From the IMG/VR virus record IMGVR_UViG_3300035675_000001: a stretch of 64,000 nt of DNA. One strand, 5' to 3'. Below, in pieces: positions 3,322 to 50,857 of this stretch. The translations under genes were made by a program, and so were the position numbers. The notes under the pieces were generated by a model. The model was not told where the DNA came from. It searched no databases and saw only the letters and a program-made list of their open reading frames with translations. Each line of letters begins with the position of its first letter. Positions within the stretch are counted from its first letter, which is position 1. Origin of the DNA: a virus (Duplodnaviria; Caudoviricetes).

Positions 3322-3798
3322 TCACTCGACCGGCGTGACCGTTACAATCTGGCGCAGGTATAGCCGGTTGGTCGGCGGCAGGCACGGGTCCACGATGGGA
3401 TGAAGGAACGGCGGGTAGGGGAAGGGCCTGGGCTTGGCGAGCAAGAAGACCTCGTTGCTGGGGTCGCTCTCCAGGCCGCTGGCATCGCAAGCCGTGGCCA
3501 TGAAGTAGTAGGTCACGCCAATCTCAAAGGTGTTTGTTATTTTTGCACAGTGACTTGTAGGGCACAAGCACTCCACCCAGCGGATGTTGTTGCTGGCATA
3601 GCCGTTGTAGCCCAGGCCCACAGACAGGTTGGTGTAGTAAACGCCGCTGTTGGTCCCCCAATAGATTTTGAACGTAGAGATTTTGGGTATCTCCGCCTCC
3701 GGGTAGTCCCACGCCAGGGCAACGCCGACCTTGTTGGTTGTCTGTCCCAGCCCGGTCAGGGCGGAGATCAGCCAGATGAGTGAGATGAGCTTTCTCAT
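3322..3798 (-). CDS. secreted fibronectin type III-like domain protein
   Basis: N-terminal signal peptide; LAWD...FKIYWGTNSGVY...TYYFMATACDASGLESDPSNEV is an FN3 pattern. Confidence 0.7.
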   Translation of the reverse strand: MRKLISLIWLISALTGLGQTTNKVGVALAWDYPEAEIPKISTFKIYWGTNSGVYYTNLSVGLGYNGYASNNIRWVECLCPTSHCAKITNTFEIGVTYYFMATACDASGLESDPSNEVFLLAKPRPFPYPPFLHPIVDPCLPPTNRLYLRQIVTVTPVE

Positions 3799-6700
3799 TG
3801 GGGATGGTGGTAAACGAAAGGCTTGAGCATCCGATGCCAGCGGTTGACAAAGCTGCGCTCTGCCTCGTGGCCGCGCTCTTTGCTCTTGAGGATGTTTACA
3901 ATCTCTGTCCGGTAAAAGTTGGTGATGGCGTCTTTCAGCTCTTGCAGCCGGTTGAAGTCGAAGTTGAAGGACTTCCAGTGGGCGCTCTTACCGATCCGGC
4001 TGTGGGGCGGAACCTCGACCACCAGGTAAGCTGTCGTGCTCAGCCACTTGATGTGGTAGTCCGGGTCTTCCTCGCTGCTCATGGACATGATCTGAACGGT
4101 CACGGAGCCGCTGTAACCGTGCTCGGCGTTCTTGGCCTCCATCCGGTAAATCCGGTCAGGGTGCTCATCATGAAGTCCGCGCCACTTCTCCTCGGTCCAG
4201 ATGAAGTGCTCCGGCGATACCGCGTCCTTCCAGTCGATGTCATCCTCCGCCGCCTCATACACCCGCTTGAAAGCAGGCTGCTGCTCGGCCCAGGCCAAAC
4301 CCTTCTCAACCGCCGCGTTCCAGTCCGGGATGCCGGGCACGACCAGGGCGTCGATCATCTGCCGGTGAAGGTTCTTGCCCGCCACGCCGGTCTCCTTCCA
4401 GAGCGTGAACTGGAACCTCTGCTCCCGGTTCTGGCCATACTTGTCCACCAGGTTGCCAATGTCCAGGGCGAGACCGCCAGGGTGAACGAACTTCTTCTGG
4501 ACGACCATGTTGGCCTTGGGGTCATTCAGGAATTGGTAGTGGTGGGCTGTGAAAGCATGGCCCTCGCCTGCGCCCTCCCAACCACTGTCGCCCGTCACTT
4601 CCTTCCAGCCAATGTCCTCGTCGGACTCCTCAACCCAATGGTCCCGGACCTCGCGGAAGTAGGGGCTGCGGTTGGCCCAGTCGATAGCGCCCTTCAAGGC
4701 ACCGTCCATGTTCAAAGCCGCGATCTCCTGGCGCTCCTTCACGTCCAGGTGGTGTTTCAGCTCGACCGAATAGATGTGGTGCCCGGTCCCCGGATTGATC
4801 GGGTTATCGACCGTGGTGCGATACTGGAGCAGCAGGCGGAATCCCGTCTCCGGGTGCTTGGCCATCGCCATCGAGTGGCCCTGCGGCCCGATCATCCAGC
4901 CGTCCAGCTCCCCCACGGCGTCCTTCCAGTCAACCTCGTCCTCACCCTCCTGGGTAGGCAGCAGCTTCATCTTGCGGGCGATTTCCCGGACCAGCTTGTC
5001 ATTGTCCAGGCCCAGGGGCGGCAGGTCATCCAGCGGAACCCACTTGACCTTCTCGGCATCGTCGCCCGCCGTGGCCCTTTCGCCGTCCGGCAGAGTCGTG
5101 CCGTAAACGGTGACCTGCTTCTTGCCGGTCTCATTGGGCATGTCCTTGATGTAAACGAGGCGACCCAGGTCGAGCTTGGTCTCCTCCTTCATCTCCCGGT
5201 GCGCGGCATCTTCGATGGACTCGCCTTCATTCGCGTGCCCACCTGGGATCACCCACTCTCCCTCAGCCGGGGGATACTCGCGCTTGCAGACCAGGCACTC
5301 GAATCCCTTGTCACTCCGCTTGCGGAAAACGGCCACGATGGCGACGCGGCTCTTGTCGTCGCCCTCCTCACTGTTCTCGATCAGGTCTTCCCCGTGGACA
5401 TCCGGGATGCCTGTCATCCGGCTGGCCTCCTCGCGGGTGACGAACTCTCCACGCCTGGTCAGGAAGCCGATCTCCACCTGCTCCCAAATCCGGTTGTAGG
5501 CGTCGTTGTCCACTTCGCCCAGGGCTTCCAGGTCAGCCAGGCTTTTGACCTTGCCGAACATGCCTTGCTGGAGGAATCGCTCCATCGCTTCGGAGTGCGT
5601 GGACCCTGTGGCGACCTGGCGGGTGCGTTTGTGCAGCACAGCAGGCTCGACAAGCGGCCTATTTGTCGCCTCATGCACAATGTCTTGCGGGCTTGTCAGC
5701 GTGCTGAACCTACCTGTTTTTGGATCGTAACTTGTCACACTCTTGTCAACTGCAAGTGCTTCTGCCAGAGCATCCAAGGACTTGTTAGCATACCACTCAC
5801 CTTTGACAGATACAAAACCTTGTTGCTCAGACTCTTGCACGCTACGCAGCGTTCCGCCTTGTTCGAGCAAGCGATTGACAAGACCAGCCTGACAAGACTC
5901 GACTTTGCCCCAGCCGTCGATGCTCAAGATGTGCTTTGGAACGATCAGATTGAAGGTGTCCACCCCGGCAGGCACCGCCCTGATCGACTTCATCTGCTTG
6001 TCATTCAGACCCAGCTTGCGGATAGCGTCTTTGACAAGAAGCATGTCCTGGAGCAACCAGCCCGGCCAGTGAACATGGAACGCCTTGCTATGGCCCGACC
6101 AGGGGAACAAGAATGTGCTCTGCGCCCCGGCTCCCATGATGGCAGCTTCGATGTCGTTTCGCTTGAGCTTGAATGGACCCGCGACATCTTTCCAGGTCGC
6201 GCCCTCGTCGTCTTCAACTGCCTCCGCAACTTGGCTCTCCTCGATGCCACGGTGGTAGAAGTTCAGCTCGATCCTGCCCAGGTCTTTCCGATAGTCCCAG
6301 CTCACCCAGTCCGGGCGGATGCCCACGTCTTCGATCACTTGCGCTGCGATTTGCAGCGCGTCCACATCCTCCTGGTTGGGCACCCACATCCCACGGAAGG
6401 TCATCCAATCCCCCTCCCAAAAGTTGGTGACGCCGGTCAGACCGTTGTTTGCCATCGCTTGCTCAACTTCTTGCAGAGTTGGCTTGCGGGCCGGAACTAC
6501 GTCCTTCCAGTCAGCTTCCTCGTCACTCTCGATGATGTCGCCGCCGCCAATCCCCAGGATGTCCGTGGACAGGGTGCCGGTGCCGGGGTGGTAGAAGAAG
6601 TCACGGCTGTCGCTCCTGCCGCCGCCCAGGTAGTCGAGGGCCAGCTCGTCGATCTCGCGCTTCATCTGCTCCGGGTCCAGACCCTTGGCAGCAAAGCCGT

Positions 6701-9011
6701 GAATGTAACCCGCCCGCTGGGGCACGCGCAGGCTGTGGCTGACGATCTGCCAGCCGCGATCCTTCATGGCTTGCAGAAAAGCCTTCCAGTCAGCACCGAT
6801 AACAAAGCTGTCCCTGGGCTTGCCCTTGGTCACGCTGACAACAAGGTCGTCCTCGTCATCATCAGCAAGTGCTTCTGCAACATCCTTCTTGACCTCTGGA
6901 ATGTCGAACAGGTGGAACCAGAGCTTGCCAGTATGGCGGTTCCGCTTCATGTCGGTGTCGTCCCAGCCCACGTTCGGAGCGCCGACCGCCTGGGCCAGCT
7001 CAACCGCTGCTTGCTCTGGTGCTTGCTGGAAATCAGGGGGCACCACTCCGCTCACATACACGGTCTTGGAATCCCAGTAGCCCTCGATCTGCGTGTAGCC
7101 CTTGTCCTGGAGCACCTGCATAGCCTGGCTGACAACCAGGTCGTTCGGATGGCCCATTGTGTCCTTACCACCAAGGTCATCGTCGTCAGCAAGTGACTCC
7201 GCAACAACAGCAGGGTGGTAGATGTTGAACGAGAACTTGAACATGGGCCGGTAGAGCGGAGGCTTGCCCGGCTTGACCTCGGTGCCGTGAGTCACCCGGC
7301 TTGCGCCCAACGTCTCGCGCAGCTTGTCAGCCGCCAGCTCCGGCATATCGGCCTTGGAGTTGCCAGGCACCTTGCCGGTCACGACCAGCCAGCCATTGGG
7401 GTGCCGGTAGCCACGGAGTGTCGCGTAGCCGCAGTCCCGCAGGACCATCATGGCCTGGTTGAGCAGCACGTCGCCCGGCTCGCCCATCGTGTCCACAGGC
7501 TTGCCGATGTCGTCGTCATCGTCCTCCAGGCTCTCCTCGATCTCTTTGAAGGCCGTGATCTCCGGGTCACCCACGAACCAGGTGATGTCCCAGGCTCCCA
7601 GGTCAGACTTCCAGCGGGTAGTGTAGTCGATGTCGTCGGTGCCCAGGATTTCGTAGAGGCTGGACTTGATCTGGCGGCAGAAGTTCTCCAGCTCCGGGGT
7701 GGATACTCCGCTCACGGTCCAGGGCTTGTTGTAGGTCGGGACGATGATGGTGTCCACGATCCGCTTGGGCTTGCCCAGGTCGCCCCAGCCCTCGTCGGAA
7801 GGTTCCTCGATGACCTTGTAAATCTTCAACCCGGCCAGCCCGAACAGGTGCCGGATCATGGCCCCCTTCTCGGTCGGGGTATGCAGCTCCTTGCCGCTGA
7901 TGTCGTCGTCTTCCAGGGACTCCTCTTGTGGGCCAGGAGGCCAGTCCAGGCTGGTGTCACCCCTGGCGCGTGCGGCATCGAGCCGCCTCTGCTCGGCCTT
8001 GTTGCGCTTGTCAGCCTCTTGCTCCTTCTGGCGCTTGTCATTCAACCACTGCTCGATGGAGTTGATGACCTGCTCGTTGCTGTCCGATTTGACGATGATC
8101 GAGAACCAGGTCGAGCCTTGCTCGGAATAGAAACCGGCCTTGCGGAGCGCCAGGTCCATCATGGCGTGGAGCGTGTAGCAACAGGAATCCAGGGCGAAGT
8201 AGGGCATGTGGTCGCCGCCGTCGTGGACGACGATGAGCACGCCGCCCTCACCATACTGCTCGCCCTTGGCCTTCCACTGCTCCGGGGTGTAGAAGACGTG
8301 CTTGTGCCCGCCCGAATACATGGCGTCATGGTGGTCGAGCACGCCAACGATGATCTTCCAAGCCCGCTCGGCATCCGGCGAGGCCCCTTCCGGCAGCGCG
8401 AAGTCTGGCGGGATGGGAGGCCCATAGACTTCCTTCTCGTCCGCGAAATCCGCTTCCGACGCCTCGACCACGACCAGGGAGAGGTTCCACATGTTGTTCC
8501 ACTGGTCGAGCGCCAGCTTGTTCTCCCGGACCACCACGCCCTGCGGAAGCTCGGCGCGGACCAGCCCGGCCAGCTCCTTGCCCATCTGCTCGCAGTTCTC
8601 CCGGAGCATCTTTCGGCTCTCAGCCTCCGGCAGCGTGAGCTTGATGGTGAGAAACTGCCCGGCCAGATGCCGGTCGCCGACGCGGCGGTCGCGGCTCCAC
8701 TCGAACTCGAACAGCAGGCCGCTCTGATGGAACAGATCACCGACTTTGTTTACAAAATCTTCGCCCAGCCTGGCCTTGAGGTCACTGCCCTTGGTGCCGA
8801 TCACCGGCACTGACTCCGCCAAGCGCACCCACTCGCCGCCTACGGGCAGGTTGACTACCTGCTGGTCCTCGTGGTTGAACACGTCGCCCTGGGAGTAGCT
8901 GACCCAGCCGTCATCGTTCGACCAGTAATCCCCAGCCTGGTTGCGGATCATGAAGCGCGGGTAAACCGCCACTTCCTTCATGTCGAAGTCTTGTTCCAGG
9001 ATCGTGCTCAT
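3795..9011 (-). CDS. 1738-aa modular protein with repeated acidic linkers and a Nudix hydrolase domain
   Basis: Nudix box GGHANEGESIEDAAHREMKEETKL (GX5EX7REUXEE) at about 5175-5245; about 10 acidic linkers. Confidence 0.8.
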   Translation of the reverse strand: MSTILEQDFDMKEVAVYPRFMIRNQAGDYWSNDDGWVSYSQGDVFNHEDQQVVNLPVGGEWVRLAESVPVIGTKGSDLKARLGEDFVNKVGDLFHQSGLLFEFEWSRDRRVGDRHLAGQFLTIKLTLPEAESRKMLRENCEQMGKELAGLVRAELPQGVVVRENKLALDQWNNMWNLSLVVVEASEADFADEKEVYGPPIPPDFALPEGASPDAERAWKIIVGVLDHHDAMYSGGHKHVFYTPEQWKAKGEQYGEGGVLIVVHDGGDHMPYFALDSCCYTLHAMMDLALRKAGFYSEQGSTWFSIIVKSDSNEQVINSIEQWLNDKRQKEQEADKRNKAEQRRLDAARARGDTSLDWPPGPQEESLEDDDISGKELHTPTEKGAMIRHLFGLAGLKIYKVIEEPSDEGWGDLGKPKRIVDTIIVPTYNKPWTVSGVSTPELENFCRQIKSSLYEILGTDDIDYTTRWKSDLGAWDITWFVGDPEITAFKEIEESLEDDDDDIGKPVDTMGEPGDVLLNQAMMVLRDCGYATLRGYRHPNGWLVVTGKVPGNSKADMPELAADKLRETLGASRVTHGTEVKPGKPPLYRPMFKFSFNIYHPAVVAESLADDDDLGGKDTMGHPNDLVVSQAMQVLQDKGYTQIEGYWDSKTVYVSGVVPPDFQQAPEQAAVELAQAVGAPNVGWDDTDMKRNRHTGKLWFHLFDIPEVKKDVAEALADDDEDDLVVSVTKGKPRDSFVIGADWKAFLQAMKDRGWQIVSHSLRVPQRAGYIHGFAAKGLDPEQMKREIDELALDYLGGGRSDSRDFFYHPGTGTLSTDILGIGGGDIIESDEEADWKDVVPARKPTLQEVEQAMANNGLTGVTNFWEGDWMTFRGMWVPNQEDVDALQIAAQVIEDVGIRPDWVSWDYRKDLGRIELNFYHRGIEESQVAEAVEDDEGATWKDVAGPFKLKRNDIEAAIMGAGAQSTFLFPWSGHSKAFHVHWPGWLLQDMLLVKDAIRKLGLNDKQMKSIRAVPAGVDTFNLIVPKHILSIDGWGKVESCQAGLVNRLLEQGGTLRSVQESEQQGFVSVKGEWYANKSLDALAEALAVDKSVTSYDPKTGRFSTLTSPQDIVHEATNRPLVEPAVLHKRTRQVATGSTHSEAMERFLQQGMFGKVKSLADLEALGEVDNDAYNRIWEQVEIGFLTRRGEFVTREEASRMTGIPDVHGEDLIENSEEGDDKSRVAIVAVFRKRSDKGFECLVCKREYPPAEGEWVIPGGHANEGESIEDAAHREMKEETKLDLGRLVYIKDMPNETGKKQVTVYGTTLPDGERATAGDDAEKVKWVPLDDLPPLGLDNDKLVREIARKMKLLPTQEGEDEVDWKDAVGELDGWMIGPQGHSMAMAKHPETGFRLLLQYRTTVDNPINPGTGHHIYSVELKHHLDVKERQEIAALNMDGALKGAIDWANRSPYFREVRDHWVEESDEDIGWKEVTGDSGWEGAGEGHAFTAHHYQFLNDPKANMVVQKKFVHPGGLALDIGNLVDKYGQNREQRFQFTLWKETGVAGKNLHRQMIDALVVPGIPDWNAAVEKGLAWAEQQPAFKRVYEAAEDDIDWKDAVSPEHFIWTEEKWRGLHDEHPDRIYRMEAKNAEHGYSGSVTVQIMSMSSEEDPDYHIKWLSTTAYLVVEVPPHSRIGKSAHWKSFNFDFNRLQELKDAITNFYRTEIVNILKSKERGHEAERSFVNRWHRMLKPFVYHHPQ

Positions 9012-9505
9012 GTCGCAGCTTTTTTCAAGATAGCCGTGGTGCTCACATTGGGCACCGGGCGGACCAGCCGGATGACGCAGTTCATCCCCAAGGCAGCTTC
9101 CCGCTCGCCCGCGTCCAGGGTCTCCATCGTGTAGTCACCGCCCTTCACCCAAACGTGGGGCCGGGCGTGTTGCAAGAAACTGGTCGCCCGCAGGTCATCG
9201 AAAATGTAAACAATATCCACCGCTTCGAGGGCAGCGATCACTGCGGCCCGGTCGTGCTGGCTGTTGACCGGGCGCGTCGGACCCTTCAACTGCCGAACCG
9301 ACGCATCGCTGTTGACCCCGACAACCACGAACTCGCCTTCCATCCGCGCCTGCTCCAGCAGGTAGATGTGGCCCGGATGAAGGATGTCGAAGCAGCCGTT
9401 GGTCGCAACCACGCGGCAGGCTTTGGGCAGCATGGCCCGCCAGGCGATCAAACCTGCCAGGTCCATGATCTTCTCCTCGGCGGAGCTGTAGTAGTCAGTG
9501 TCCAT
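9008..9505 (-). CDS. rfaE2: ADP-heptose synthase adenylyltransferase (HldE C-terminal / RfaE2-like cytidylyltransferase family)
   Basis: TNGCFDILHPGH (HxGH), VGVNSDASVRQLKGPTRP, VKGGDY motifs. Confidence 0.85.
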   Translation of the reverse strand: MDTDYYSSAEEKIMDLAGLIAWRAMLPKACRVVATNGCFDILHPGHIYLLEQARMEGEFVVVGVNSDASVRQLKGPTRPVNSQHDRAAVIAALEAVDIVYIFDDLRATSFLQHARPHVWVKGGDYTMETLDAGEREAALGMNCVIRLVRPVPNVSTTAILKKAAT

Positions 9506-10034
9506 GCTGTTTAAGAACCTGGAGCCAGTAGGTCACGTCCTCCGGCGTCATGGTGTCGTAGATGGTGGTGTGGCCCTCGTGCGGTTCCTCCAGGGATTCG
9601 ACCCAGGCTTTGAAGTGCGGGTCGCGGGCCAGGGCGCTCTCGAACGCCTGGTAGAGCTGGCCGACCTGGGTCCGGCGCTCGTGCTCCTTCACGAACGGAA
9701 CGGCCACGCGCATGGCTGCCGCCCGCAGGGACTTGGGCGACAACATTCCGGCCCAACCGCTTTCCCTGGTGAACTCGCGTGGCCAAGGCTCGATGTGGGG
9801 GCCACGGATGCGAAGCAGATAACGAGCGCCGGTGCGGTGCTCCAGGGTGACCGTGTATTCGCCAATCTGCCGGACCCAATCCCGGCCTTCTTCTGGCATT
9901 TCCTCCATGAAGGCGTGAACAATCTGGCTGGCAAGTCCCTCTGCCGAAGTGTCCTGATAGACCTCTTTGAAATCAATATCGTCCTCCTCCGCTTCGAGAA
10001 GGCCGTTCAAGATCAATTCGGTTTCGCTTCGCAC
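9495..10034 (-). CDS. hypothetical protein with N-terminal acidic tag (LLEAEEDDIDFKEV)
   Basis: GTG start 4 nt after GTAGTTA motif. Confidence 0.7.
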   Translation of the reverse strand: MRSETELILNGLLEAEEDDIDFKEVYQDTSAEGLASQIVHAFMEEMPEEGRDWVRQIGEYTVTLEHRTGARYLLRIRGPHIEPWPREFTRESGWAGMLSPKSLRAAAMRVAVPFVKEHERRTQVGQLYQAFESALARDPHFKAWVESLEEPHEGHTTIYDTMTPEDVTYWLQVLKQHGH

Positions 10035-10693
10035 GCCTTAACTACCCCCGGAACTTTGTGGGGGTGGGTTATGGCCCAGGGCGTCAGGTCGGCGGGCAGC
10101 CAATCGTGTTTACAGAGGGAGATGATCTCGGCGTGGTTGCCCCAGGACATGCCGCACGCCCGGAGGCCCCACATGATGATCCGATCCGTGGACAAATACC
10201 CCTTCCACTCCGCCCAGTCGTAGTCGTAGTCCCTCTTGAACGCCCAGGTCTTCCAGTCGGTCAGGGCCGGAAAGGTGAACACCTTGCTGTCGTAGAGCTT
10301 TTGCGCGGATGTGCGCCAAAAAGCCTGGCAGCCGCCCTGGATGTGCTCCTGGACCTCGCCTTTGCCCAGCAGGCTGCCGAAGCAGTCCACATCCGGGATG
10401 TAGCTCAACTTGCGGCTGATCCTGGCATCGGGGTCAAACTTGAAGATGATGTCGCCGGTCTCGCGCAGCGCCTCCTCGAAGAAGCTGTGCCACCAGTTCC
10501 CGCCCTCCGGCTGGACCTTGAGCGGCTTGGGCCGCTGGACAAACTTGGCGGGCACTGCTGCCAGATCAGTGCGGGGCTGATCCGCAACGATAACGACGGA
10601 CCCACCAGGGTAAGCCTTCCAGATCAGGTCAACGCAGAAGGTGATAAGGTCAAGGCTCTCCGAAGCAACAGTTACCACGAAAATCGGTTTCAC
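10013..10693 (-). CDS. glycosyltransferase-like protein (GT-A fold)
   Basis: beta-strand then KFDPDA DxD-like motif, HIQGGCQ; family not resolvable by eye. Confidence 0.5.
   Translation of the reverse strand: MKPIFVVTVASESLDLITFCVDLIWKAYPGGSVVIVADQPRTDLAAVPAKFVQRPKPLKVQPEGGNWWHSFFEEALRETGDIIFKFDPDARISRKLSYIPDVDCFGSLLGKGEVQEHIQGGCQAFWRTSAQKLYDSKVFTFPALTDWKTWAFKRDYDYDWAEWKGYLSTDRIIMWGLRACGMSWGNHAEIISLCKHDWLPADLTPWAITHPHKVPGVVKACEAKPN
10039..10045 (-). promoter_or_regulatory. GTAGTTA putative late-promoter motif
   Basis: same heptamer 4-7 nt before starts at 22064, 26629, 35046, 38029, 39026, 46744, 56452 and (ATAGTTA) 15603. Confidence 0.6.
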
Positions 10694-10705
10694 GGGACAG
10701 AGAAC

Positions 10706-10728
10706 AAAAAAGCCCCACCGAGCAGGGC
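10706..10728 (-). terminator. intrinsic terminator
   Basis: GCCCTGC-TCG-GTGGGGC stem (with G-U pairs) followed by T6. Confidence 0.6.
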
Positions 10729-10861
10729 CTTGTCACTTCCAACCGGATGGCGTATCGGCGTTGCCGCCGACCACTTCACTTCCATCCTTCGCTCCAAACG
10801 CCTGGGAGAGTGAGTTCCCGACTTACGGGGCTGGAGTGAAAGGCATAAGCGCCCGATGGGG

Positions 10862-22070: not shown

Positions 22071-22880
22071 TTAACTACAGTAGCCGTAGCCGTAGCGATT
22101 CGGAGAAGGCGGAACTTGAAGCGGTTCTCCGTCAGGTGTGAACGGCTTCGTTGTGCGCCCCTGCCAGTTCGCGCCCATCTTGACGGCCTCAGACTCCAGG
22201 TGGAACACGCGGACGGTAGGCAGCAGGTGCCTCTTGATGCGAGGCCAGCGGGCAGCCCACTGAACGTCCATATTCTCGGCGCTGCCTTCGGTGTCCGGGT
22301 AGCGCAGCTCGTGCTGGCGCATGTATTGGCTGTGCCAGAGCTGGAAATAGCCGATGGGGCAATATCCCCACTGCTTGTGGATGAGGTTGGCCCCGATGGG
22401 GTAATCAGCCGGAGTGCTGACCAGGTAGCGGTATCCGAACTGCGGATCGTCGTGCCAGTTTTGCTTGAGCTTGCGCCAGGTGTCGTAGCCAACCACGTTG
22501 CAGCGTTCCGCGCCGTAGATGCAATCCCGCTGGAGGAAGGACTTATCCAGCATGTTGCGAAAGCCCAGCGGCAAAACAACGTCAGCATCCATTTGGAGGA
22601 TGAAACCCTTTTGGCGCAAGGCACCCAGGCCGAAGTTGATCGCCGCGCCCTTGTTGAAGTCATCACCCTTCTCGGTGAAGCAGTCGGTGGGGACGCATTC
22701 GACGGACCACTTTCGGCAGACCTCTTTGGTCACGGTATCCTCGTGGCTGGTGACCACGACCACACGGTCCAGGTGTGAGAGGTTCATTGGCAGACTCTCT
22801 GCCAAGAAGTCCCCGTAGTTGAGGCAGACAATTACTGCTTCCAACCGGCTGTCATAGAATGATTTTGGCTGATCGCTCAT
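22071..22880 (-). CDS. glycosyltransferase, family 2-like
   Basis: VIVCLNYGDFL, FNKGAAINFG, LQMDAD DxD motif, GYFQLW. Confidence 0.7.
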   Translation of the reverse strand: MSDQPKSFYDSRLEAVIVCLNYGDFLAESLPMNLSHLDRVVVVTSHEDTVTKEVCRKWSVECVPTDCFTEKGDDFNKGAAINFGLGALRQKGFILQMDADVVLPLGFRNMLDKSFLQRDCIYGAERCNVVGYDTWRKLKQNWHDDPQFGYRYLVSTPADYPIGANLIHKQWGYCPIGYFQLWHSQYMRQHELRYPDTEGSAENMDVQWAARWPRIKRHLLPTVRVFHLESEAVKMGANWQGRTTKPFTPDGEPLQVPPSPNRYGYGYCS

Positions 22881-22947
22881 ATTGATGTTTGGGCAGAAAA
22901 GCCGGGCCAAGGCAACATGGTATTTTTCGTAAACTTTTCTTACCCTA

Positions 22948-25092
22948 TTAGTCTATCACGTTCGGCTTGCCCAAAAACAGACGGGTTTTTCGGGCATTGT
23001 CGCCTTTTCCGCTGAATAGAACGGCTTTCACAAGGAACCGCATCGCCCCAGGAGAACTGGAATCAAGCAGTGGCTTGCCGATGAGTTCCCGGCAGCAGCC
23101 CTTCTGGATGTAGGCCACGGTCAGGTGAGGTCTGTATTCGGAGTGAGTGTCGGTGTGGGGCAGCTCGTTGACCCTGGCGTTCAGCGCCCGCAGGGCCTCG
23201 CTTTCCACGTCGAACTTGAGCACGTCATACTTGTCGCTCGACTCAAACATCGAGCAGCCCATGATCTGGATTTCAAAAGGCTGGGTCTCCTCGATGATCC
23301 GCAGCAGCTCCCCGGTCGGCTCTGAGTCATGGAGGCCCCACTTCACGGTGACGTGCGGCTCGGTCTCCCGGCCAAAGCCCGGCTCGTCCGCGTAAAGCTC
23401 CTCGTCGAGCACATACATCTGGCCCCAGTGGATCACGGCGTCACCCAGCTCCGGGGGTGCCGGTGCCATCAGGCACGAATACTCGCGCCCTTCGCACAGG
23501 CTCTCCAGTTCCAGGCGCATCTGCTCCTGGTCCTGCTCTGGATACATCCATCGCCGCATCAATTCAGGGTCCGTGGCTTCCACCACGTTGTCCACGCTCA
23601 CCGACTGGTCGCCGCCCGTGTCTTCACTCCACTCCTCCCCGGCCCGGTCTCGCGCCTCGTCGAACAGAGCATAGAACCGATCATTGTCCTCAAAATCGTA
23701 AAGCGCCTCCTCCATGTCCGGGAATTTCTGCTCCAGGCCGCGACGGTAGCTGCGCTTGATCCAGTTGCTCCAGGCTTGTTGGCGCTTCTCCTCCTGGAGC
23801 TGCGTGTGCCCCTCCTCATCGAGCAGGGGGTAATTCTCCCGGCTGTCATAGTCCTTGCGGAACTCCTCGAACGAGTCACCGGGAATCTCCGGGATGTCCT
23901 CCTCGTAAAAGCCCAGCTCTTTGCCGTTGTAAGAGAGCGCCCTGACCTTGAGCCAGGGGTAGTGCTCTTTGAAGTAGTTCAGGTTGGCCTGCTCGACCAG
24001 ACCGCCGCTGAAATCAGAGTGGGAAGCCACGGAGAACCAGCCGTCCCGGTCGTTCTGATTCAGGTTTTCGTTGGCCCAGGCCAGGATCGCTTCCGCGTGT
24101 GAACCCTTGTCGTGCTTGATGAGGTCGGTCAGGTCATCCTCATCCTCAATGCCCTCGAACATGTCCAACTGCTGCTGTGGCGCGGGCTGGTCCCCTAGCT
24201 TGAACTGGAGCTGATTACGGTCGGGATACATGGCCGCGTGGAGCTTCGGCCAGGTGACCAGCTCTACCACACGGTCAACATTGACCGAAGGTTTATGGGA
24301 CGTGTCCGTGTCCCAAAACTCCTCGGCTTCTGAGGCCATCCGGTTGAAAAAGTTGAGACCGTGAGGTCCGAAAAGAAAAGTCTCGATCTCGGCCTGCGGG
24401 TTTTCGGACTTGAACTGACCGCCGAATCTTTCCGCCAACGAGTCCGCAAACTCCTTAGCATAGGTCTCCCTCCAGGCCCTTCCGATGGCTTGCTCGGCGA
24501 CCTCGCTCATGATGTCGTCGTCCAGCACCCGGCCTTGAATTGACTGTTTGACGTAACCCCGGAACGGATTCCAAAGCGGCATCCAATCCAGCTTGTCCGG
24601 TTCCAGGAACACCCGGAAATTTAGCTCGCTGCCATCCTCCTCCAGCCAGGGGAAGTTGCGAACGAAGAACAGGTGGTTGGCGTGCTCCACCGTGCCAGGA
24701 TACGCTTGGCTGTAGGTCGTGCCCGGTATCTCCCACATTTTTCGATCTTCGTCCCAATAGAGGTTTTGACGCGCCCACTCCTCGCGGGACTCATATTCCC
24801 TGCTTCCGGCCAGCTCTTTGACATCCAGGTCCGGGTCGTCCTCCATCGCTTCCCCGACGTAGGGCTTGATCTGATGAAGGTGAACCAGGGCATGACCGTG
24901 CTGCGGGTGGGCAACCCACAGGGTCTTCCTGTCCGCGTTGCGCGAATGGACCGTAGCGACCTTCCAGACACGGCCCCATTCTGCCGTGCCAGGGAGGATG
25001 TCCTGGAGGTAGGCCAGCACCTTGCGGCCCGGCGCATACCAATCGTCGGCCAGGTTCGCCACGTCCTTGAAGTCGTCGAGTTCGTCGTTCAC
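22948..25092 (-). CDS. 714-aa modular protein with acidic linkers and C-terminal 2H phosphoesterase (Acb1/LigT-like)
   Basis: two HxT motifs, EPHVTVKWG and RPHLTVAYI, about 75 aa apart. Confidence 0.75.
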   Translation of the reverse strand: MNDELDDFKDVANLADDWYAPGRKVLAYLQDILPGTAEWGRVWKVATVHSRNADRKTLWVAHPQHGHALVHLHQIKPYVGEAMEDDPDLDVKELAGSREYESREEWARQNLYWDEDRKMWEIPGTTYSQAYPGTVEHANHLFFVRNFPWLEEDGSELNFRVFLEPDKLDWMPLWNPFRGYVKQSIQGRVLDDDIMSEVAEQAIGRAWRETYAKEFADSLAERFGGQFKSENPQAEIETFLFGPHGLNFFNRMASEAEEFWDTDTSHKPSVNVDRVVELVTWPKLHAAMYPDRNQLQFKLGDQPAPQQQLDMFEGIEDEDDLTDLIKHDKGSHAEAILAWANENLNQNDRDGWFSVASHSDFSGGLVEQANLNYFKEHYPWLKVRALSYNGKELGFYEEDIPEIPGDSFEEFRKDYDSRENYPLLDEEGHTQLQEEKRQQAWSNWIKRSYRRGLEQKFPDMEEALYDFEDNDRFYALFDEARDRAGEEWSEDTGGDQSVSVDNVVEATDPELMRRWMYPEQDQEQMRLELESLCEGREYSCLMAPAPPELGDAVIHWGQMYVLDEELYADEPGFGRETEPHVTVKWGLHDSEPTGELLRIIEETQPFEIQIMGCSMFESSDKYDVLKFDVESEALRALNARVNELPHTDTHSEYRPHLTVAYIQKGCCRELIGKPLLDSSSPGAMRFLVKAVLFSGKGDNARKTRLFLGKPNVID

Positions 25093-29389: not shown

Positions 29390-30667
29390 TTAAGCTGCGG
29401 GCGTCGGCAGCGGAACAATCTGTTTGCAGGCGTCGATCACATCCTGTGGTGACACGGCTCCCAAGCACTCGCAAACCGTCCGGTTAGGCCGGGGCGGGCA
29501 ATACTTGGGGAACACGCCGCTGTAAGCGAAGCAGGGGGAGAATGGGCAGGCTTCGCGCTTCCAGACCGGGATGTGATTCTTGTAATACTTCACGCGCTTG
29601 CCAGGGTCGCACAGACCCCACAGGCCGACGCAGGGCACGTCCATCGCTCCGGCGACGTGAACCATCATGGAGTCCGGGGCAACCACCAGGGATGCCTTGG
29701 TGGTCAGCGCCCACAGCTCCCGCAGGGACGGCGAGCAGTAAAGCTGGATGTTCTGGCGCAGGCAGCCGGAACCTTTGCACTTGGGGCAGATGTCATGGAC
29801 CGGCGCGGGCGGCGTAACCTGGGTTCCGTTTTCCGTGACCGTGGTTCCGCTGTCCGTAACTTCGGGCGCTTTTTCCACCCGGCCACTGCCGCCACACTTG
29901 GCGCACATGACGGCCTTGCGGTAAGGCTCCGGGATGAACTCGTCGTAGAGCGCCAGCCAGTGCATGTCCGGGTAGGCGTCTGCCAGCTTGCTCAGGATGA
30001 AGGCGCTGTCGTTGGGCGGCAGGCACCGCACCTGGTTCGCCGCCGAGAGCTGATACATGCCGAGCTTCTTGCCCTGGAAGATGTTTGCCGATTGCATCTC
30101 CAGGAAGGTGAAGTTCGGGCGCACGACCTTGCTCTTGGCGTCGATGGTGTCGGGGTTAACCCCGGCCTTGTTGAGCATCACGTCCAGGGGATGGAGCTGG
30201 TCCTGGTGCTCGTCGGTGTTGACCACGGCTTCCAGGAGGAAGTAGTAGTCGAACATCTTGAACTGCTCGTGCTGCATGGGAAGGGTCTGGATGGACTTGA
30301 GCCAGGGGAAGTTCCACCAGCAGGTCTGGTTGCCTGGGTCGGTCAGAACGTGGACCTCGAAGCCGTAGCTGGACATGATCCGGGCAAACGGCCAGGTCAT
30401 GATCTGGTCCCCATAGCCGCCGCTGCCGTTGTAAATCAGGAGGCGCTGGGTGCCAGGCTTGCGGGCCAGGGCATTGAAATTGGCGATTCGGCTTTCAATC
30501 CGGCTCACCTTGAAGGCACGCTGGTTGACAGCCTGCTCCTGGATGATGCGGTTGAACTGCTGCTGGGGCAGGATGTATTCGCGGCCTGCCTCAAAGGTCA
30601 TGGTCGCGGCACCCGCCGACTTTTTGAAGTTGATCGAGACCGGTTCGGCAAATGTTACCAGATTCAT
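29390..30667 (-). CDS. glycosyltransferase family 9-like (heptosyltransferase fold) with inserted CxxCxGxG zinc finger
   Basis: GGYGDQIMTWP and VAPDSMMVHVAGAMDVPCVGLWG are GT9 signatures; CAKCGGSG...CPKCKGSG. Confidence 0.8.
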   Translation of the reverse strand: MNLVTFAEPVSINFKKSAGAATMTFEAGREYILPQQQFNRIIQEQAVNQRAFKVSRIESRIANFNALARKPGTQRLLIYNGSGGYGDQIMTWPFARIMSSYGFEVHVLTDPGNQTCWWNFPWLKSIQTLPMQHEQFKMFDYYFLLEAVVNTDEHQDQLHPLDVMLNKAGVNPDTIDAKSKVVRPNFTFLEMQSANIFQGKKLGMYQLSAANQVRCLPPNDSAFILSKLADAYPDMHWLALYDEFIPEPYRKAVMCAKCGGSGRVEKAPEVTDSGTTVTENGTQVTPPAPVHDICPKCKGSGCLRQNIQLYCSPSLRELWALTTKASLVVAPDSMMVHVAGAMDVPCVGLWGLCDPGKRVKYYKNHIPVWKREACPFSPCFAYSGVFPKYCPPRPNRTVCECLGAVSPQDVIDACKQIVPLPTPAA

Positions 30668-30755
30668 ACTTCTCTACAGAACGCGGACGTTTTTGTTTAC
30701 TTTTTTGGATCGGTCGCCCGCCCTGTAGATACATCGGGGCCGTGTGCCCTCGCTT

Positions 30756-41947: not shown

Positions 41948-42559
41948 GTGAAGAAAGAGATCGGTTTCATCGCCAGCGAGTCTGGAGCGGTCGTCAAATA
42001 CGACCCAAAGATTCATGCGGTCCAGCAGTCTGTGCCGCCAGCGGGTCCGTTGACCAAGCACCAGCGAGCCACGCTTTACTTCAAGGCGCTGCGGGCTGCC
42101 AATGCCCTGCTCAGAGAAGTCGGGTTCCACACCGTAGCCGACGTGGGCCACAGCGGCTTCTGCATCGAGATGGACGGGTTCATCCTGGAGATGATGGTCA
42201 AGGAGCCTCCGCGCCTGGCCCACGTCACCAGCTACCCTGGCTACGAGTATGACCCCAAGAAGATCAACGCCAAGGTCACGATGGCGTGCCCCACCGAGGA
42301 CAATGAATACGTGATCCAGGTCATCGCCTCCTACCGGCGCGGGACCATGCCCCCGTTCTACATCGTCGTGGCCAAGGATTCACCCGACGTGCTCAAAGAA
42401 GCCTTCCGCAGCATCCTGTTCGCGGCCCGCGACTTCATCCAGAAAGACCCCAACCTGATGGCAAAAATCCAGGCCGCGATGGCAAACCGCGACCTGGATA
42501 AAGACCTGGAACGATTAAGCGCGGCAGACAAGTTCTTGCCGCCGCCGATGTCAGATTAG
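41948..42559 (+). CDS. hypothetical protein
   Basis: GTG start (VKKEIG) 7 nt after GTTCT. Confidence 0.6.
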   Translation: MKKEIGFIASESGAVVKYDPKIHAVQQSVPPAGPLTKHQRATLYFKALRAANALLREVGFHTVADVGHSGFCIEMDGFILEMMVKEPPRLAHVTSYPGYEYDPKKINAKVTMACPTEDNEYVIQVIASYRRGTMPPFYIVVAKDSPDVLKEAFRSILFAARDFIQKDPNLMAKIQAAMANRDLDKDLERLSAADKFLPPPMSD

Positions 42560-45500
42560 CGTGATCGCCACGTTGACGGCCACGGCCCTTCCTAGCGGCC
42601 CATCCGGGCTGGTGTTGAGAAGGTGGTAGGTGCCAGTGTTCTGGTCCTTGAGCACCAGTCCAGAGCTTCCTCCGCCGTCGAGGTTGATGGCGTTATAGAC
42701 CTTGTAGTCTTGGATGAGGATGTCCGCGATGTCGCCGACTCTCATGCCGCCCTGGCCTCCGCTGGACCCGCTGACGCCTTCCACCACGCAGATAACAAGC
42801 GTTTGCTGATCGAGGGTGACTCCGGCGACGGTGCGGGCACGGATCAAGTCATACCAGGAGTTGCTGTTGCTGTAGCCGCTGATGGCACTGAGCTGTCCGG
42901 CATTGGTGCCGTAAATCGGGATCGTCTTGACGCCATTGGTGATGACCTGGGCGCTGCCACTGACCGTGTTTACAAGCTGCATCGCTTCGAGGATGTGCTT
43001 GTTGTCACCGAACGCCGGGTTGCGATGAACAACAGCCGCGTGGAAGTTCGCGTCGAAGTTGAGCGCCGGAGCGTAGGGCAGTATCGCGTAGCTCTGGTTC
43101 GGGTATCCGAAGCCGATGGGCTGCGGCTCGAACGGCGAGAATTTATTCGTGCTCGAAACAGTGAAGCCGACGCTCGCTGCGTTCAAGTCAAAGGACGGGA
43201 ACGGCAGGAAGAAGTTGCCGTTGAACGCCAGGTCGGAATAGACCATTTGGGCGAAGTCAAGGGTCGTCTGCCGAACCGTGTCTCGCGTGCCTCCAGGATA
43301 CGTCACGTAAACATTGGCGTGGCGCATATCGACCACGGCGATGAACATGCGGGTGCCGTCAGGCAGCGCCCTGGACTCAACAGTCACGCCCTCCTTGGGG
43401 ACGAAGCTGCCGCTGAAATTCCACTCCAGCAGGTCAAACGCTGCGCCAGGCTCAGTCCCAGCCCAGGTGTAGATGCCCCCGTCATGGATGACCGTAGCGT
43501 AGCGTTCCACTGGAGGCGCAGCCACGACGATGCGCGTGCCACTGTCCGAAATATAAGCCGAAGGCCAGCGATAGAGGTAGGCATTCTCAACCACCCGCAA
43601 GCTGTTGCGCTCGACTTCGGGAACCCGGTTGGTGGGCGGAGGCGTTCCGTAGCGCACGAGGCTTTGGAACGGATTGGCAGCCAGGATGTGCGGCAGCTCG
43701 CCTTCTTCACCAAGCCACACATCCATGTCGCCATTGAATCCCGCGTCCTCGCGCCCTGCGTAAAGTTTGAAGACCAGCGGCCCGGCCAGCGGCGTGTTGC
43801 TGCCATACCAGGTCGAGGGATAAGGGAGTGCCGGAACTGAATCGTTGATGCCACGGCAGCGCACCAAAACGTATTCTGCGCCTGCCGATTGGACCGTCAA
43901 AATGCTGTCAGGATTGATCTCACTCGCAGTGATGTCCACGGGCAGCGTGCCGTAGAAGCGATACTCGCTGCGGTCAGTCAAACCCGTGAAGCCCACCGAG
44001 CGGATCGGAGTCGGGCTGGCAGGATAGAGAGTCCCTGCCGCGTAAAGGCGGGGCCGTGGCACCCAAGGCTTCCAGGTCACGTTGACCGCCGCCTTCTTGG
44101 CATACATGCGGAACGCGAGCACGTCTCCGGGCAGAACGTCGATGATGATGTTCCGAATGCCTTGGCGGAGCACAAAGTAAGAAGGCACGCTGTTGCGGTA
44201 GCGCACGATTTGCTTTTCGCTGTCGGCACTGACCGTAATCGACAGCGTGCCTTGGCCCGCGACGCTGAGGAAAGGCTGCTCAGGTCGGTTGGCCGTAATT
44301 CCGACAGTCTCCTCGCCCGTGGTCAACCCATTGATGCCGTCGTTGTAGGTCTCCGGGACGACAGCGAAGAATGGCATCCCATTGTCCACATGGTTCATGT
44401 AAACATCCACGTCGCGCTGGTTCTCCGGGTCACGGTAGCGGAACACCATACCGCCCGAAACGGACCCCGTGCAGATCACATCCTGGCAATCGTAAACAAC
44501 TTCCACGTCACTGCGGAGCACGGGCTGGTAACCAGTCGTGAAGGGCAGGCTGCCGTAGAGGCCGTAGCAGGTGCCTTGGAAGCAGACGTAATCAGGCGGA
44601 ACAGTCGTGCCGGGGTAAGGGATCACCAACGGACTGCTGGTGCCGTTGCAAGCCACAAAGCCGTAGGGCACTCCGCACATGCTTCCGTTGGTATAGGCCA
44701 CATACGGATCGTGCGGCGGGAACGTGCCGTAGAGCGTGCCGACCCACTCCTCGATCAAGCAGGGATTGCAGTGGCAGAGAGTCACGTTGTCGGCAGGGGC
44801 CACGAACGGAGCCGGGTCGTAGAGCGGCTGAGGAACGTGCATCTTGTGATCCACGTTTTCCTGGCCGTAGCAGAACATGCCCACCGGAGCGCACTTCGGA
44901 TCGTAGCAAGCCACGATGTCAGCGACCATCGGGTAGATCGTGCCGGACACGTCAACCGTGTAGGTGCCGCTGGAGCTGGTGGTCGTGCCCATCATCACAT
45001 CGACGAGGCCAGTGTTGTGGTAGCACGCGCCGTCGAACCGGGCGAAGGGAGCCGATGTCGTTGAATAGATCGTGCCCTCCAGAGGAACAGGGTCGGGTCG
45101 AACAGTGCCCATAGGCCAGGTGCCCAGGTCAGCGCCAGTTTCGTCCAGCGTCACGATCCCGACCAGGCCATTGTCGATGAAGCAGCCATCAGAAATGTCA
45201 ACGTCTGCCTCTCCGATCTTGAGGTAGGTCTCCAGATCAGGACTGAAAGCGTCGGCAGTGATGGGAACACTGACAGTCTCGGTCCCATACCCGCCCGCCG
45301 TCAGAAGACGCAGGGTGACGACCGTGCCCTGGTTCACAAAGCCATTGGCCAGGTAAACGGCGACTTTCCCGGATACCCGGCGCGGGCGCTGGATGATCGT
45401 CGGGTAGGCGGGCATCATGAACGAAATTGTAAACGGGCGTGCGTTCTCGATGGCGTAGGTGCTGTTGGCATCCACTTCAAGCACACCTGGAACAGTCGGA

Positions 45501-47375: not shown

Positions 47376-48431
47376 TTACAAATGTGCTCCGGCTCCGCGC
47401 TGGCCAGGGAGGTCGGTGCCCAGGCGCATAATCTCCCGGTCCACGCTGTGGGGCCTCTCCCGCTCGGTGACGGCGTAGAGCGCAGCATCCACGTCGTCGT
47501 TGGCGTCATTGGTCAGCCGGGCCGTGCCGTCCGCGTTTTTCCCGTGCGGCATCTTGGCAACCGATACAGGCATCACAGAGCTGAGCCGCAGCGCAGTCTC
47601 CACGGCCAGGCCGGTGGAATCGCTGTCGTAGAGGATGCAAAACTCCTTGATGTGCCGGTAACGCTGAAACTTGGCTACCTGGGACCGGCTGAGACGATGC
47701 GTGAAGATACAGACCGGGACGATGTGCTGGATGTCCAGCTCCCGCAGCTTGCGGCGGATCGAGAGCGTGTTCAGGATCGACTCGACCACGATTACCAGGC
47801 TGATATTCGGGTCGGCCAGCGCGTCCAGGTTGTAAACCCAGTAGCTCGGCCCATAGGGCACTTCCTTTTTGCTGGGGAACTTCTTGGTGGTCTCGAAGCC
47901 CTCGTCGGAGTAGGTGCGGCCCTGGTAATAGACGCAGCGCACGCCCTCATAGACCGGGAAGATGCAGAAAGGCTCCCAATTTCCTGTCCGCGTGAATCCG
48001 GCCCCCGCTTCCTCCAGGTCTTCGATGCCCAGGTGCTTACGCTCGGCCATGTCCTTGCAGAAACGCCAGTAGCAGCTCTTTCGGTTCTTGGCCAGCGGGC
48101 TGAACCCCTCCGGCAGCTCGATGTTCTGGACCGGCGTGACCGCCTGCTTCATGTCGCCCCGGAGCGTCTGGCCGAACTCGTCAAACCCGGCGCTGCCATC
48201 ATCCGTCCAGCTCAGCCCCTTCAACTTGAACAGGGCGGCAACGTGGTGCGGCTGGGGGTCGTGGCAGCGCCAGCAATGCGACCGTAAGGTCTTGACGTTG
48301 ATGCTGCGATTTCCCGTTCTATCTCCACAGCCAGGCACGGGGCAGACGATGTAGATTTCATCGTCCGTCGTGCGGTCTTTGATGACCTCAAAGACGTTGC
48401 CAATCTCGCGTTTGACCCTATCCGGCGACAT
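47376..48431 (-). CDS. DNA primase (zinc finger plus Toprim)
   Basis: CPVPGC...HCWRC zinc-binding domain; VIVVES and ILYDSD Toprim motifs. Confidence 0.85.
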   Translation of the reverse strand: MSPDRVKREIGNVFEVIKDRTTDDEIYIVCPVPGCGDRTGNRSINVKTLRSHCWRCHDPQPHHVAALFKLKGLSWTDDGSAGFDEFGQTLRGDMKQAVTPVQNIELPEGFSPLAKNRKSCYWRFCKDMAERKHLGIEDLEEAGAGFTRTGNWEPFCIFPVYEGVRCVYYQGRTYSDEGFETTKKFPSKKEVPYGPSYWVYNLDALADPNISLVIVVESILNTLSIRRKLRELDIQHIVPVCIFTHRLSRSQVAKFQRYRHIKEFCILYDSDSTGLAVETALRLSSVMPVSVAKMPHGKNADGTARLTNDANDDVDAALYAVTERERPHSVDREIMRLGTDLPGQRGAGAHL

Positions 48432-50210: not shown

Positions 50211-50857
50211 GACTTATGCACTTTCGTTGACCACCCATCACGCACGCAGGCCAGCATTCTCTGGCGCAGACCCTCCAAGCCAACCGGGTTCAGAGCTGCC
50301 CAGTAGTGAATCATCCAGGCGTCCGGCCAGAAGTTGGAGTCCTGGTTGCAGATCAACCACTCCGGGATGAACGAAATCTTGCTGCGGAAATCCGGGAAAT
50401 AGTGCATGAGGCACTTGATGGCATTCTGCTCCCAGGTGTCGTGCGTGTCGAACGGATCAGCCGGAACGATGGACCCCAGGTGAGGGAGCATGTCGAACAA
50501 CGACTTTGACCAGGCGCAGTTTTTGACCAGGAAAATGCCGAAGCAAACGCCCCACTTATCGAGGGAGACGAGCAGCGGCTTATCCCACGAAAAGGTCTTG
50601 ACCACATCCTCCAGCTTGATGTCGTCGCGCACCATGAGCGCATCGGCATCGAGCCACAGCAGCCAATCACAGTCGTCCATCTGTGAGCGGACAGCGGTGA
50701 TTTTGTTCCAGGACGCAGGTTGCTTCGGATTGAACAGCGACCGGTAGCACACGAACTCGTAGCCGTGCTTGAGGGCATACGCCTGGGTTATCGGGGCGCT
50801 GATGTCACCCAGCATCGCCCGTCCCTCGTCGTAGAGCATGACGACTTTTATCTTCAT
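50207..50857 (-). CDS. GT34 (GMA12/MNN10-like) glycosyltransferase
   Basis: SWNKI...DWLLWLDADAL...GIFLVKN...WEQNAI. Confidence 0.75.
   Translation of the reverse strand: MKIKVVMLYDEGRAMLGDISAPITQAYALKHGYEFVCYRSLFNPKQPASWNKITAVRSQMDDCDWLLWLDADALMVRDDIKLEDVVKTFSWDKPLLVSLDKWGVCFGIFLVKNCAWSKSLFDMLPHLGSIVPADPFDTHDTWEQNAIKCLMHYFPDFRSKISFIPEWLICNQDSNFWPDAWMIHYWAALNPVGLEGLRQRMLACVRDGWSTKVHKS

Follow-up and report, generated by a model that had tools for sequence, protein, structure and literature searches.

A phage-encoded HldC-type nucleotidyltransferase and its possible link to GT9-fold glycosyltransferases in a clade of jumbo phages

The 64,000-nucleotide stretch of IMG/VR virus record IMGVR_UViG_3300035675_000001 (Duplodnaviria; Caudoviricetes), which we refer to in its entirety as the window, contains a gene, rfaE2, whose 165-residue product we conclude, from comparison of sequences, to be a host-derived and intact enzyme of the HldC type, acting presumably on heptose-1-phosphate. 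With it, an enzyme family that is already known gains a further phage member, whose role would likewise be of a familiar kind, namely auxiliary sugar activation that feeds phage glycosyltransferases. The parts that have not been described before are comparative, and consist of the recurring pairing of rfaE2 with genes for GT9-fold glycosyltransferases in phages, and of a GT9-fold enzyme that is core to a jumbo-phage clade and highly conserved there. Our preferred explanation, held tentatively and with somewhat less than an even chance of being right, is that phage HldC and the GT9-fold enzymes use heptose-1-phosphate of the host to heptosylate an acceptor chosen by the phage, most likely a glycan on a virion protein.

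Identity and ancestry of the phage enzyme

The gene on which the analysis centres is the following:

9008-9505, minus strand: rfaE2, an intact open reading frame (ORF) of 165 residues, encoding a stand-alone HldC/RfaE-domain-II nucleotidyltransferase

The original prediction, made from the letters of the window alone, had taken this ORF for an adenylyltransferase of the RfaE2/HldE-C type, and the family assignment agrees with profile matches, a homologue of known structure and the motifs that are kept. The protein matches TIGR02199 (rfaE_dom_II) with 153.5 bits (E 3e-45), as well as PF01467 (67.8 bits) and phrog_7878 (98 bits), and HldC from B. pseudomallei (BpHldC; PDB ID: 5x9q) matches residues 8-163 with an E-value of 1.5e-30. 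Models for PPAT, TagD and FAD synthetase give at most 35 bits each, compared to 153.5 for rfaE_dom_II, and these three identities were rejected on that basis. The motifs TNG, HPGH, NSD, KG..RP, KGGDY and STT are all retained. The HPGH motif (residues 42-45) aligns with HRGH of BpHldC, such that the (H/T)xGH signature of the cytidylyltransferase-like superfamily is present, and TNG, NSD, KG and KGG, all present and aligned, account for four of the five motifs predicted to bind heptose-1-phosphate; in BpHldC too these motifs, which include EXTP, are predictions (PMC7993394). The C-terminus reads PNVSTT where BpHldC has FEHDRSTT, meaning that only STT is kept and that the Phe that stacks on the adenine is lost.

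The ancestry of the gene appears to be bacterial. The best cellular homologues, at 50-54% identity, come from Verrucomicrobia subdivision 3/Limisphaerales and allies, and a scan of a single metagenome gave homologues of at most 53% identity among the matches listed. In four Verrucomicrobial loci (L119, L125, L127 and L144) hldC abuts or overlaps a GT9 gene recognised by PF01075 (60-80 bits), and a fifth (L130) has the same ORF layout, its neighbour being judged by layout alone; five such cellular genomes also carry an hldA-like kinase gene (340-355 bits) and gmhA. In a quick maximum-likelihood tree the window protein forms a 95* clade with four metagenomic proteins (P0002-5; 61-67% identity) and the copy from a related jumbo phage (G002), and this phage clade nests within a second 95* clade made up of Verrucomicrobiota, Lentisphaerota, one Omnitrophota entry and several viral contigs. 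The tree, the adjacency of hldC and GT9 genes and the presence of hldA and gmhA thus group RfaE2 with cellular enzymes that are found in an ADP-heptose/GT9 context.

The window has a GC content of 59.6%, with a third-position value (GC3) of 0.7-0.88 in its real genes, and rfaE2, at 0.80, is like the genes around it. A T4-type portal, a tail sheath, a fibre, a helicase and a primase are among the gene products, and the window is therefore a portion of the genome of a large myovirus; megablast of 20 kb of the window against a phage collection gave zero matches. Restriction sites have been purged from it: GTAC occurs 0 times, compared to 232 expected, and CTGCAG, GTCGAC, CTCGAG, GGATCC, GAATTC and GGTACC 0 times each, with 3 copies of CTAG and no depletion of GATC, CCGG or GGCC.

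GT9-fold enzymes and their association with rfaE2

Three further genes for glycosyltransferases or proteins with a glycosyltransferase fold, all distant from rfaE2 in the window, are needed for what follows:

29390-30667, minus strand: 425-residue GT9-fold glycosyltransferase with an N-terminal beta domain, GD and PDSxxxH motifs and four invariant C-terminal Cys
50207-51160, minus strand: glycosyltransferase of the GT34 family (GT-A; PF05637, 66.3 bits), in a glycan cassette adjoining the gene for the 762-residue protein
51621-53909, minus strand: 762-residue tri-domain protein, of which residues 145-425 (52635-53477) are a compact GT9-fold domain and the C-terminus is weakly GH130-like

GT9-like domains had been predicted for the first and the last of these, and at the level of the modelled fold this is supported by VIA Z scores well over those for other GT-B proteins. 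The 425-residue protein matches PF01075 with 37 bits (threshold 22), though only profile positions 165-244, the C-terminal part, are covered. Its AlphaFold2 (AF2) model has a predicted local distance difference test score (pLDDT) of 85, and the top five PDB matches found by Foldseek are all GT9. The best VIA Z scores are those for 3tov (22.9), WaaF (22.2), TibC (20.5, aligned with residues 1-423 and no better than WaaF or 3tov) and WaaC (19.8), compared to at most 12.8 for other GT-B proteins, and over 11 GT9 entries the scores range from 17.7 to 22.9, with root-mean-square deviations of 3.2-3.9 and 257-291 residues aligned. G86-D87, D332-S333, H337 and Cys374/379/390/399 are invariant among 24 homologues. 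The donor loop aligns with those of WaaF and 3tov, with M, not G, at its third position, and the four invariant Cys lie downstream of it, with a spacing unlike that of Cys339/342/358/370 in TibC. About a third of the homologues lack a DnaJ-like pair of CxxCxGxG motifs (residues 254-261 and 294-301), which forms a variable insert. We found 273 homologues of the protein, at 48-87% identity and on contigs of up to 260 kb, and a helicase gene adjoins the GT9 gene in every relative examined; by these comparisons it ranks as a core gene of a jumbo-phage clade and among its most conserved.

The compact domain of the 762-residue protein has no match to PF01075 or NCBIfam, an hhalign comparison of the core GT9 family with it is not significant (probability 0.9%), and PDB sequence and profile searches with both GT9-like proteins gave nothing significant. 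When folded with 29 homologues, it gives an AF2 model with a pLDDT of 89.6 and VIA Z scores of 15.9 for 3tov, 15.2 for WaaC, 15.0 for WaaF and 14.6 for TibC, with the next fold at 9.4; the range over eleven GT9 entries is 12.0-15.9, with 218-228 residues aligned. The consensus of the family is GNQSxPYAIAEGL, in which N204 and Q205 are invariant, and GD is kept (G19, D20). The C-terminus of the whole protein scores 21.8 bits against GH130, which is under the cut-off. The neighbours of the 762-residue gene are the GT34 gene and a methyltransferase gene, in a late cassette behind the baseplate genes. A 1397-residue protein (42551-46744, minus strand), its gene preceded by the GTAGTTA motif described below, has a C-terminal NAGPA phosphodiester-glycosidase domain (54 bits), which is probably a further sugar-active domain on the virion.

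The proposed link between rfaE2 and GT9-fold proteins is one that recurs in other phages. More than 590 stretches in IMG/VR encode relatives of rfaE2, and we searched 48 of those records, mostly fragments. A PF01075 match is found in 13 of the 48, a kinase of the RfaE-domain-I/PfkB type in 33 (adjoining rfaE2 in both cases checked by coordinates, G017 and G039), and gmhA in only 2; the kinase is absent from the ten records nearest to the window RfaE2. In a complete 78-kb phage (G021), a gene of the compact GT9 family, the same family as the 762-residue protein (E 1.3e-78), overlaps rfaE2 in a tightly packed cassette (L023:8982-13684) that encodes the compact GT9 protein, RfaE2, a methyltransferase, a GT_PLOD GT-A protein, an O-methyltransferase (Methyltransf_24) and a B12-binding radical SAM enzyme. 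G008 has the gene order GT9-like, rfaE2, an ORF of 92 residues and tail sheath, and G017 and G039 each have the kinase gene, rfaE2 and a GT9 gene inside a span of about 3 kb. We consider this recurrence, seen in gene order and family matches, to be the best evidence that phage HldC enzymes may feed phage GT9-fold transferases in glycan cassettes near structural genes. In phages that carry rfaE2 it is common for steps 2 and 4 of the ADP-heptose pathway to be encoded and for step 1 to be lacking.

For the other genes of the pathway we ran Pfam scans on the approximately 60 ORFs of the window and looked in five related jumbo-phage records (G001-G005, 56-100% complete), which are those with the same GT9-helicase synteny. 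The window has none of the GmhA/SIS, PfkB kinase, HAD-type GmhB and epimerase families in these scans, just as had been stated for GmhA, the kinase and GmhB, and the wider search for gmhA, the hldE kinase, gmhB and hldD found each in 0 of the five related records. Any synthesis of ADP-heptose therefore relies on heptose-1-phosphate from the host. The idea that the phage runs its own heptosylation route thus stands in part only: the last activation enzyme and GT9-fold proteins are encoded, but GmhA, HldA and GmhB of the host must supply the heptose-1-phosphate. Within the same five records rfaE2 is found in three (G002, G003 and G004) and the compact GT9 domain in four (G001, G002, G003 and G005).

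Arrangement of the rfaE2 locus

The genes and elements around rfaE2, in order of position, are:

3795-9011, minus strand: 1738-residue polyprotein with about nine internal acidic linkers (V/I/L-x-E, then S/A ... DDD ... WKDV) and a NUDIX module
9495-10034, minus strand: 179-residue ORF with a GTG start and an N-terminal acidic tag (LLE, then AEEDDIDFKEV)
9514-9519, minus strand: GGTTCT element, a variant of the CGTTCT class, 14 nt ahead of the rfaE2 start and inside the end of the 179-residue gene
10013-10693, minus strand: untagged 226-residue protein with a possible GT-A (Fringe/GT31/GT2-like) fold, encoded two genes upstream of rfaE2, where the co-directional cluster begins
10039-10045, minus strand: GTAGTTA late-type motif, 4 nt ahead of the GTG start of the 179-residue ORF
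10709-10731, minus strand: terminator-like hairpin and T-run directly upstream of the possible GT-A gene, with a 10-pair stem and then TTTGTTCTCT

The original prediction had rfaE2 translationally coupled between two acidic-tag genes and downstream of GTAGTTA, and each element of that description is found. The ATG of rfaE2 lies within the last codons of the 179-residue ORF, with an overlap of 11 nt (ATGGACACTGA), and its stop overlaps the start of the 1738-residue ORF in the sequence ATGA (9008-9011). Both neighbours carry an acidic peptide of the form V/I/L-x-E, S/A...DDD...(W/F)K(D/E)V, which we read, from its pattern, as a putative T4-type prohead-protease site with its tag. RfaE2 itself carries no acidic tag, and should therefore remain in the cell. 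No Pfam, PHROG or NCBIfam family was found for the 179-residue ORF, and neither it nor the 226-residue protein has a homologue in the five related phage records.

The NUDIX module of the polyprotein matches PF00293 with 68.2 bits (residues 1223-1340). Its best NCBIfam matches (4932-5414, minus strand) are weak, at 37 bits and far under the cut-offs, and are to the Nudix half of bifunctional nicotinamide mononucleotide (NMN) adenylyltransferase/Nudix enzymes. We considered whether rfaE2 might be an NMN adenylyltransferase paired with this module, in an NAD salvage of the NadM-Nudix kind, and rejected this, there being no NMN adenylyltransferase model among the NCBIfam matches, where rfaE_dom_II scores 153 bits.

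Two types of element mark gene starts in the window. GTAGTTA is present in 10 copies, compared to 0.78 expected, 9 of them on the minus strand and 4-7 nt ahead of start codons, and it also stands ahead of the portal and fibre genes and of those for the 2154- and 1397-residue proteins. The second type is GTTCT, mostly as CGTTCT, with 13 copies at most 80 nt upstream of 57 starts, 9 of them at 12-16 nt before the start codon. These elements mark rfaE2 (GGTTCT), the possible GT-A gene (TGTTCT, 10701-10706, minus strand, 13 nt) and the GT9 core gene (CGTTCT, 30678-30683, minus strand, 16 nt), together with six other sites. The placing of rfaE2 in a late operon thus needs qualifying, for GTAGTTA does lie upstream, but the gene also has a GGTTCT of its own at the spacing of the class and is therefore not purely a late-operon gene; it may be read from its own element and also by read-through from GTAGTTA.

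No Pfam match was found for the 226-residue protein, and a structure search of the ESM Atlas gave TM scores of 0.70-0.75 to clusters of Fringe/Galactosyl_T, GT2 and nucleotide-diphospho-sugar transferase proteins; we take the GT-A fold of its model as a lead only. The hairpin ahead of this gene probably marks the start of a transcription unit; terminator-like sites are no more numerous in this region than chance would give.

Competing explanations and comparison with known systems

The explanation that we prefer starts from the family of the enzyme and its intact motifs, the coupling of the gene, its origin, the GT9 folds, the absence of the upstream pathway and the recurrence of rfaE2 beside GT9 genes, and adds to these a substrate, a user of the donor in the window phage and an acceptor, which we infer. 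The 165-residue protein would be an active HldC-type nucleotidyltransferase, acquired by the phage lineage from a Verrucomicrobiota-like host, that supplements or replaces the final activation step of the host. Its product would be the sugar donor of the phage GT9-fold transferases, either the 425-residue core enzyme or the compact domain of the 762-residue protein in the late glycan cassette, or both, and these would place heptose on an acceptor chosen by the phage, most likely a glycan on a virion (tail or baseplate) protein. A virion-protein glycan is the most likely target given the possible GT-A gene two genes upstream of rfaE2 and the GT34/methyltransferase cassette behind the baseplate genes. 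The GTTCT-class element common to rfaE2, the possible GT-A gene and the GT9 core gene also speaks for the explanation. There is a precedent in a phage GT-B enzyme that needs a phage enzyme of the cytidylyltransferase family in order to transfer heptose (bioRxiv 10.1101/2023.12.21.572611).

Several observations weigh against this explanation. The score of 153.5 bits is below the equivalog cut-off of TIGR02199 (181.5), as are those of the related phage rfaE2 copies. The position of EXTP is occupied by DLRA, though this kind of deviation is common to the Verrucomicrobial homologues: the hldC genes that adjoin GT9 genes have xxTAT or xRAT there, and the loss of EXTP is therefore a trait of the lineage and no novelty of the phage. 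BpHldC also takes beta-glucose-1-phosphate (PMC7993394), making broad substrate use possible. The donor loop of the compact domain reads NQSxPYA where DSGxxH would be expected, so that D and H are both lost, and its donor may therefore differ. The two GT9 genes of the window lie 20 kb and 42 kb from rfaE2. Among the relatives, G001 (96% complete) has both GT9-fold genes and no rfaE2, and G004 has rfaE2 and lacks the compact GT9 domain; as judged from gene content, neither transferase is strictly in need of phage HldC. The neighbours of rfaE2 differ in every relative, and in G002 and G004 they are unrelated genes (PTH2, radical SAM/SPASM, DUF6527). Finally, that a phage product bears heptose, and which acceptor carries it, are matters that we infer.

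Two stricter forms of association can be rejected. The unrelated neighbours in G002 and G004 speak against a conserved neighbourhood of rfaE2, and G001 and G004 show that, within the clade, rfaE2 and either one of the GT9-fold genes do not always occur together. The GT9-fold genes are nearly core and rfaE2 has a patchy distribution, so that the coupling between them is optional, and rfaE2 looks like an optional booster or accessory gene in a variable region and not like an obligate partner.

A patchy gene in a variable region is also typical of auxiliary genes, and a host-directed role, which we regard as unlikely, would have phage HldC sustain or raise ADP-heptose for the heptosyltransferases of the host lipopolysaccharide (LPS) core, with no link to the phage GT9-fold enzymes. 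Such a role would either preserve the integrity of the outer membrane in late infection or change the core in its capacity as a receptor, leading to superinfection exclusion or less readsorption. It agrees with the fact that the nearest cellular relatives serve LPS-type GT9 genes, that an annotation of this kind is attached to RfaE-like genes in many phages, cyanophages among them, and that 33 of the 48 viral records with rfaE2 add only the kinase. However, it leaves unexplained why rfaE2 in other phages abuts phage GT9-fold genes in glycan cassettes or lies near the sheath gene, and the window phage has two GT9-fold enzymes of its own, along with several further glycosyltransferases. It is quite unlikely, in our view, that the same fold serves another substrate, either a different phosphate ester (for instance another beta-hexose-1-phosphate, or glycerol- or ribitol-phosphate) or a different nucleoside triphosphate, and feeds the upstream GT-A gene or a wider sugar toolkit. 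The score under the cut-off, the loss of EXTP and of the stacking Phe, the use of beta-glucose-1-phosphate by BpHldC (PMC7993394), the possible GT-A gene in the same cluster and a compact GT9 domain without the canonical donor-loop Asp and His would all be compatible with it, but Verrucomicrobial homologues share these deviations in motif, and they adjoin GT9 genes in genomes that also carry hldA and gmhA; the models for TagD, PPAT and FAD synthetase score far lower. That rfaE2 is a mere passenger, captured recently and serving no function under selection in the phage, would fit its patchy distribution and non-conserved neighbourhood; we regard it as highly improbable, considering the intact frame, the full set of catalytic motifs, the phage-like GC3 and the tight coupling on both sides. 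There is also a phage-only sub-clade, with the four metagenomic relatives (61-67% identity) and the related jumbo phage, which implies retention through divergence.

The original prediction had also allowed for heptosylation of the phage DNA, which the evidence disfavours and to which we give almost no weight. In this case the helicase-adjacent GT9-fold enzyme would move heptose from ADP-heptose to hydroxymethylated pyrimidines of the phage DNA. A pathway to heptosylated 5-hydroxymethylcytosine (5hmC) has been reconstituted from a phage gene cluster, where a cytidylyltransferase-family enzyme, a HAD/kinase fusion and a GT-B enzyme give mono- and di-heptosyl-5hmC (bioRxiv 10.1101/2023.12.21.572611), and the GT9 core gene does lie in a replication module, beside the helicase gene in all relatives. 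No route to hydroxymethyl-pyrimidines is apparent in the relatives, however: there is no TET/JBP, in a search made without a positive control, and no C5-methyltransferase in the five related records, of which the most distant (G004) is the only one with thymidylate-synthase-like genes, and no such modification gene was matched in the window. In addition, the purging of restriction sites (GTAC, and 0 occurrences for five 6-mers) suggests that the phage DNA is exposed to restriction enzymes. The thymidylate-synthase-like genes of G004, a 230-kb record with terminal repeats, lie at 22684-23565, 47776-48276 and 188054-188782, one being canonical and two divergent, and this more distant phage, unlike the closer relatives, may modify pyrimidines.

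If the preferred link between phage HldC and the GT9-fold enzymes is true, the phage taps the LPS precursor pool of its host by means of only the last, committing step, in order to furnish its own glycans with a rare sugar of seven carbons, and heptose would be a component of the decoration of phage particles. A further-reaching version, which we think unlikely, is that the jumbo-phage clade runs a dedicated protein-heptosylation system: a TibC-like core GT9 enzyme (N-terminal beta domain and Cys4 metal finger) and the compact GT9 would take as donor ADP-D,D-heptose, which HldC makes directly and without need of an epimerase, and heptosylate virion or host proteins, and some members, including the window phage, would add an HldC that siphons off the LPS precursor of the host. 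Were this so, it would be the first viral protein heptosylation, and one outside the bacterial autotransporters. The comparative result, in which rfaE2 stands beside GT9-fold genes in unrelated phages, usually with the kinase and almost never with GmhA, may be of greater use than that for the single gene, and the rfaE2-GT9 pairs and the conserved GT9 core enzyme are concrete and cheap targets for expression in a search for the acceptor.

Compared to bacterial HldC (PDB ID: 5x9q, and the split systems of hldA and hldC), phage RfaE2 has the same size, fold family, stand-alone form and TNG, HxGH, NSD, KG, KGG and STT motifs, and its closest cellular relatives are coupled to GT9 genes. It differs in being encoded by a phage without hldA, gmhA, gmhB or hldD, in lacking EXTP and the stacking Phe, in scoring below the equivalog threshold, and in being set between genes for putative capsid cargo. 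RfaE/HldE-like genes are already widely annotated in phages, including cyanophages. Those of cyanomyoviruses and other phages, annotated as 'bifunctional heptose 7-phosphate kinase/heptose 1-phosphate adenyltransferase' (phrog_7878), appear from their sequences to be of the same family, likewise phage-borne and with no GmhA alongside, whereas the window RfaE2 is only 28-40% identical to them and comes without the PfkB kinase. There is also a likeness to mycobacteriophages of the Che8/Corndog/Myrna type, in which phage glycosyltransferases encoded beside structural genes reportedly decorate virion proteins with nucleotide sugars of the host; these systems are said to differ in using other glycosyltransferase families, with no sugar-activating enzyme from the phage and no heptose.

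Both phage GT9-fold proteins share their predicted fold with the GT9 enzymes WaaC and WaaF, which are LPS heptosyltransferases, and TibC, a protein heptosyltransferase, and the core enzyme keeps GD at the position of the catalytic base and DSxxxH in the donor loop; they differ in being only 10-16% identical to these enzymes, and in the compact domain being without the donor-loop Asp and His. TibC, a dodecamer of the BAHT family, has an N-terminal beta-barrel and a Cys4 iron finger in its C-lobe (PMC4358343), a layout that the modelled N-terminal beta domain and four Cys of the core enzyme may be said to resemble. We found no paper on the function of phage-encoded HldC or on phage GT9 enzymes in the literature, save the preprint on DNA glycans (bioRxiv 10.1101/2023.12.21.572611). 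The heptosyl-5hmC cluster described there ('contig 53') has a C5-methyltransferase, a TET enzyme and a HAD/APH fusion beside a transferase like T4 beta-GT, none of which were found in the window or its relatives, and the window phage differs from it in purging restriction sites. What the two would have in common, by analogy, is a phage enzyme of the cytidylyltransferase family that is needed for the transfer of heptose by a GT-B enzyme of the same phage.

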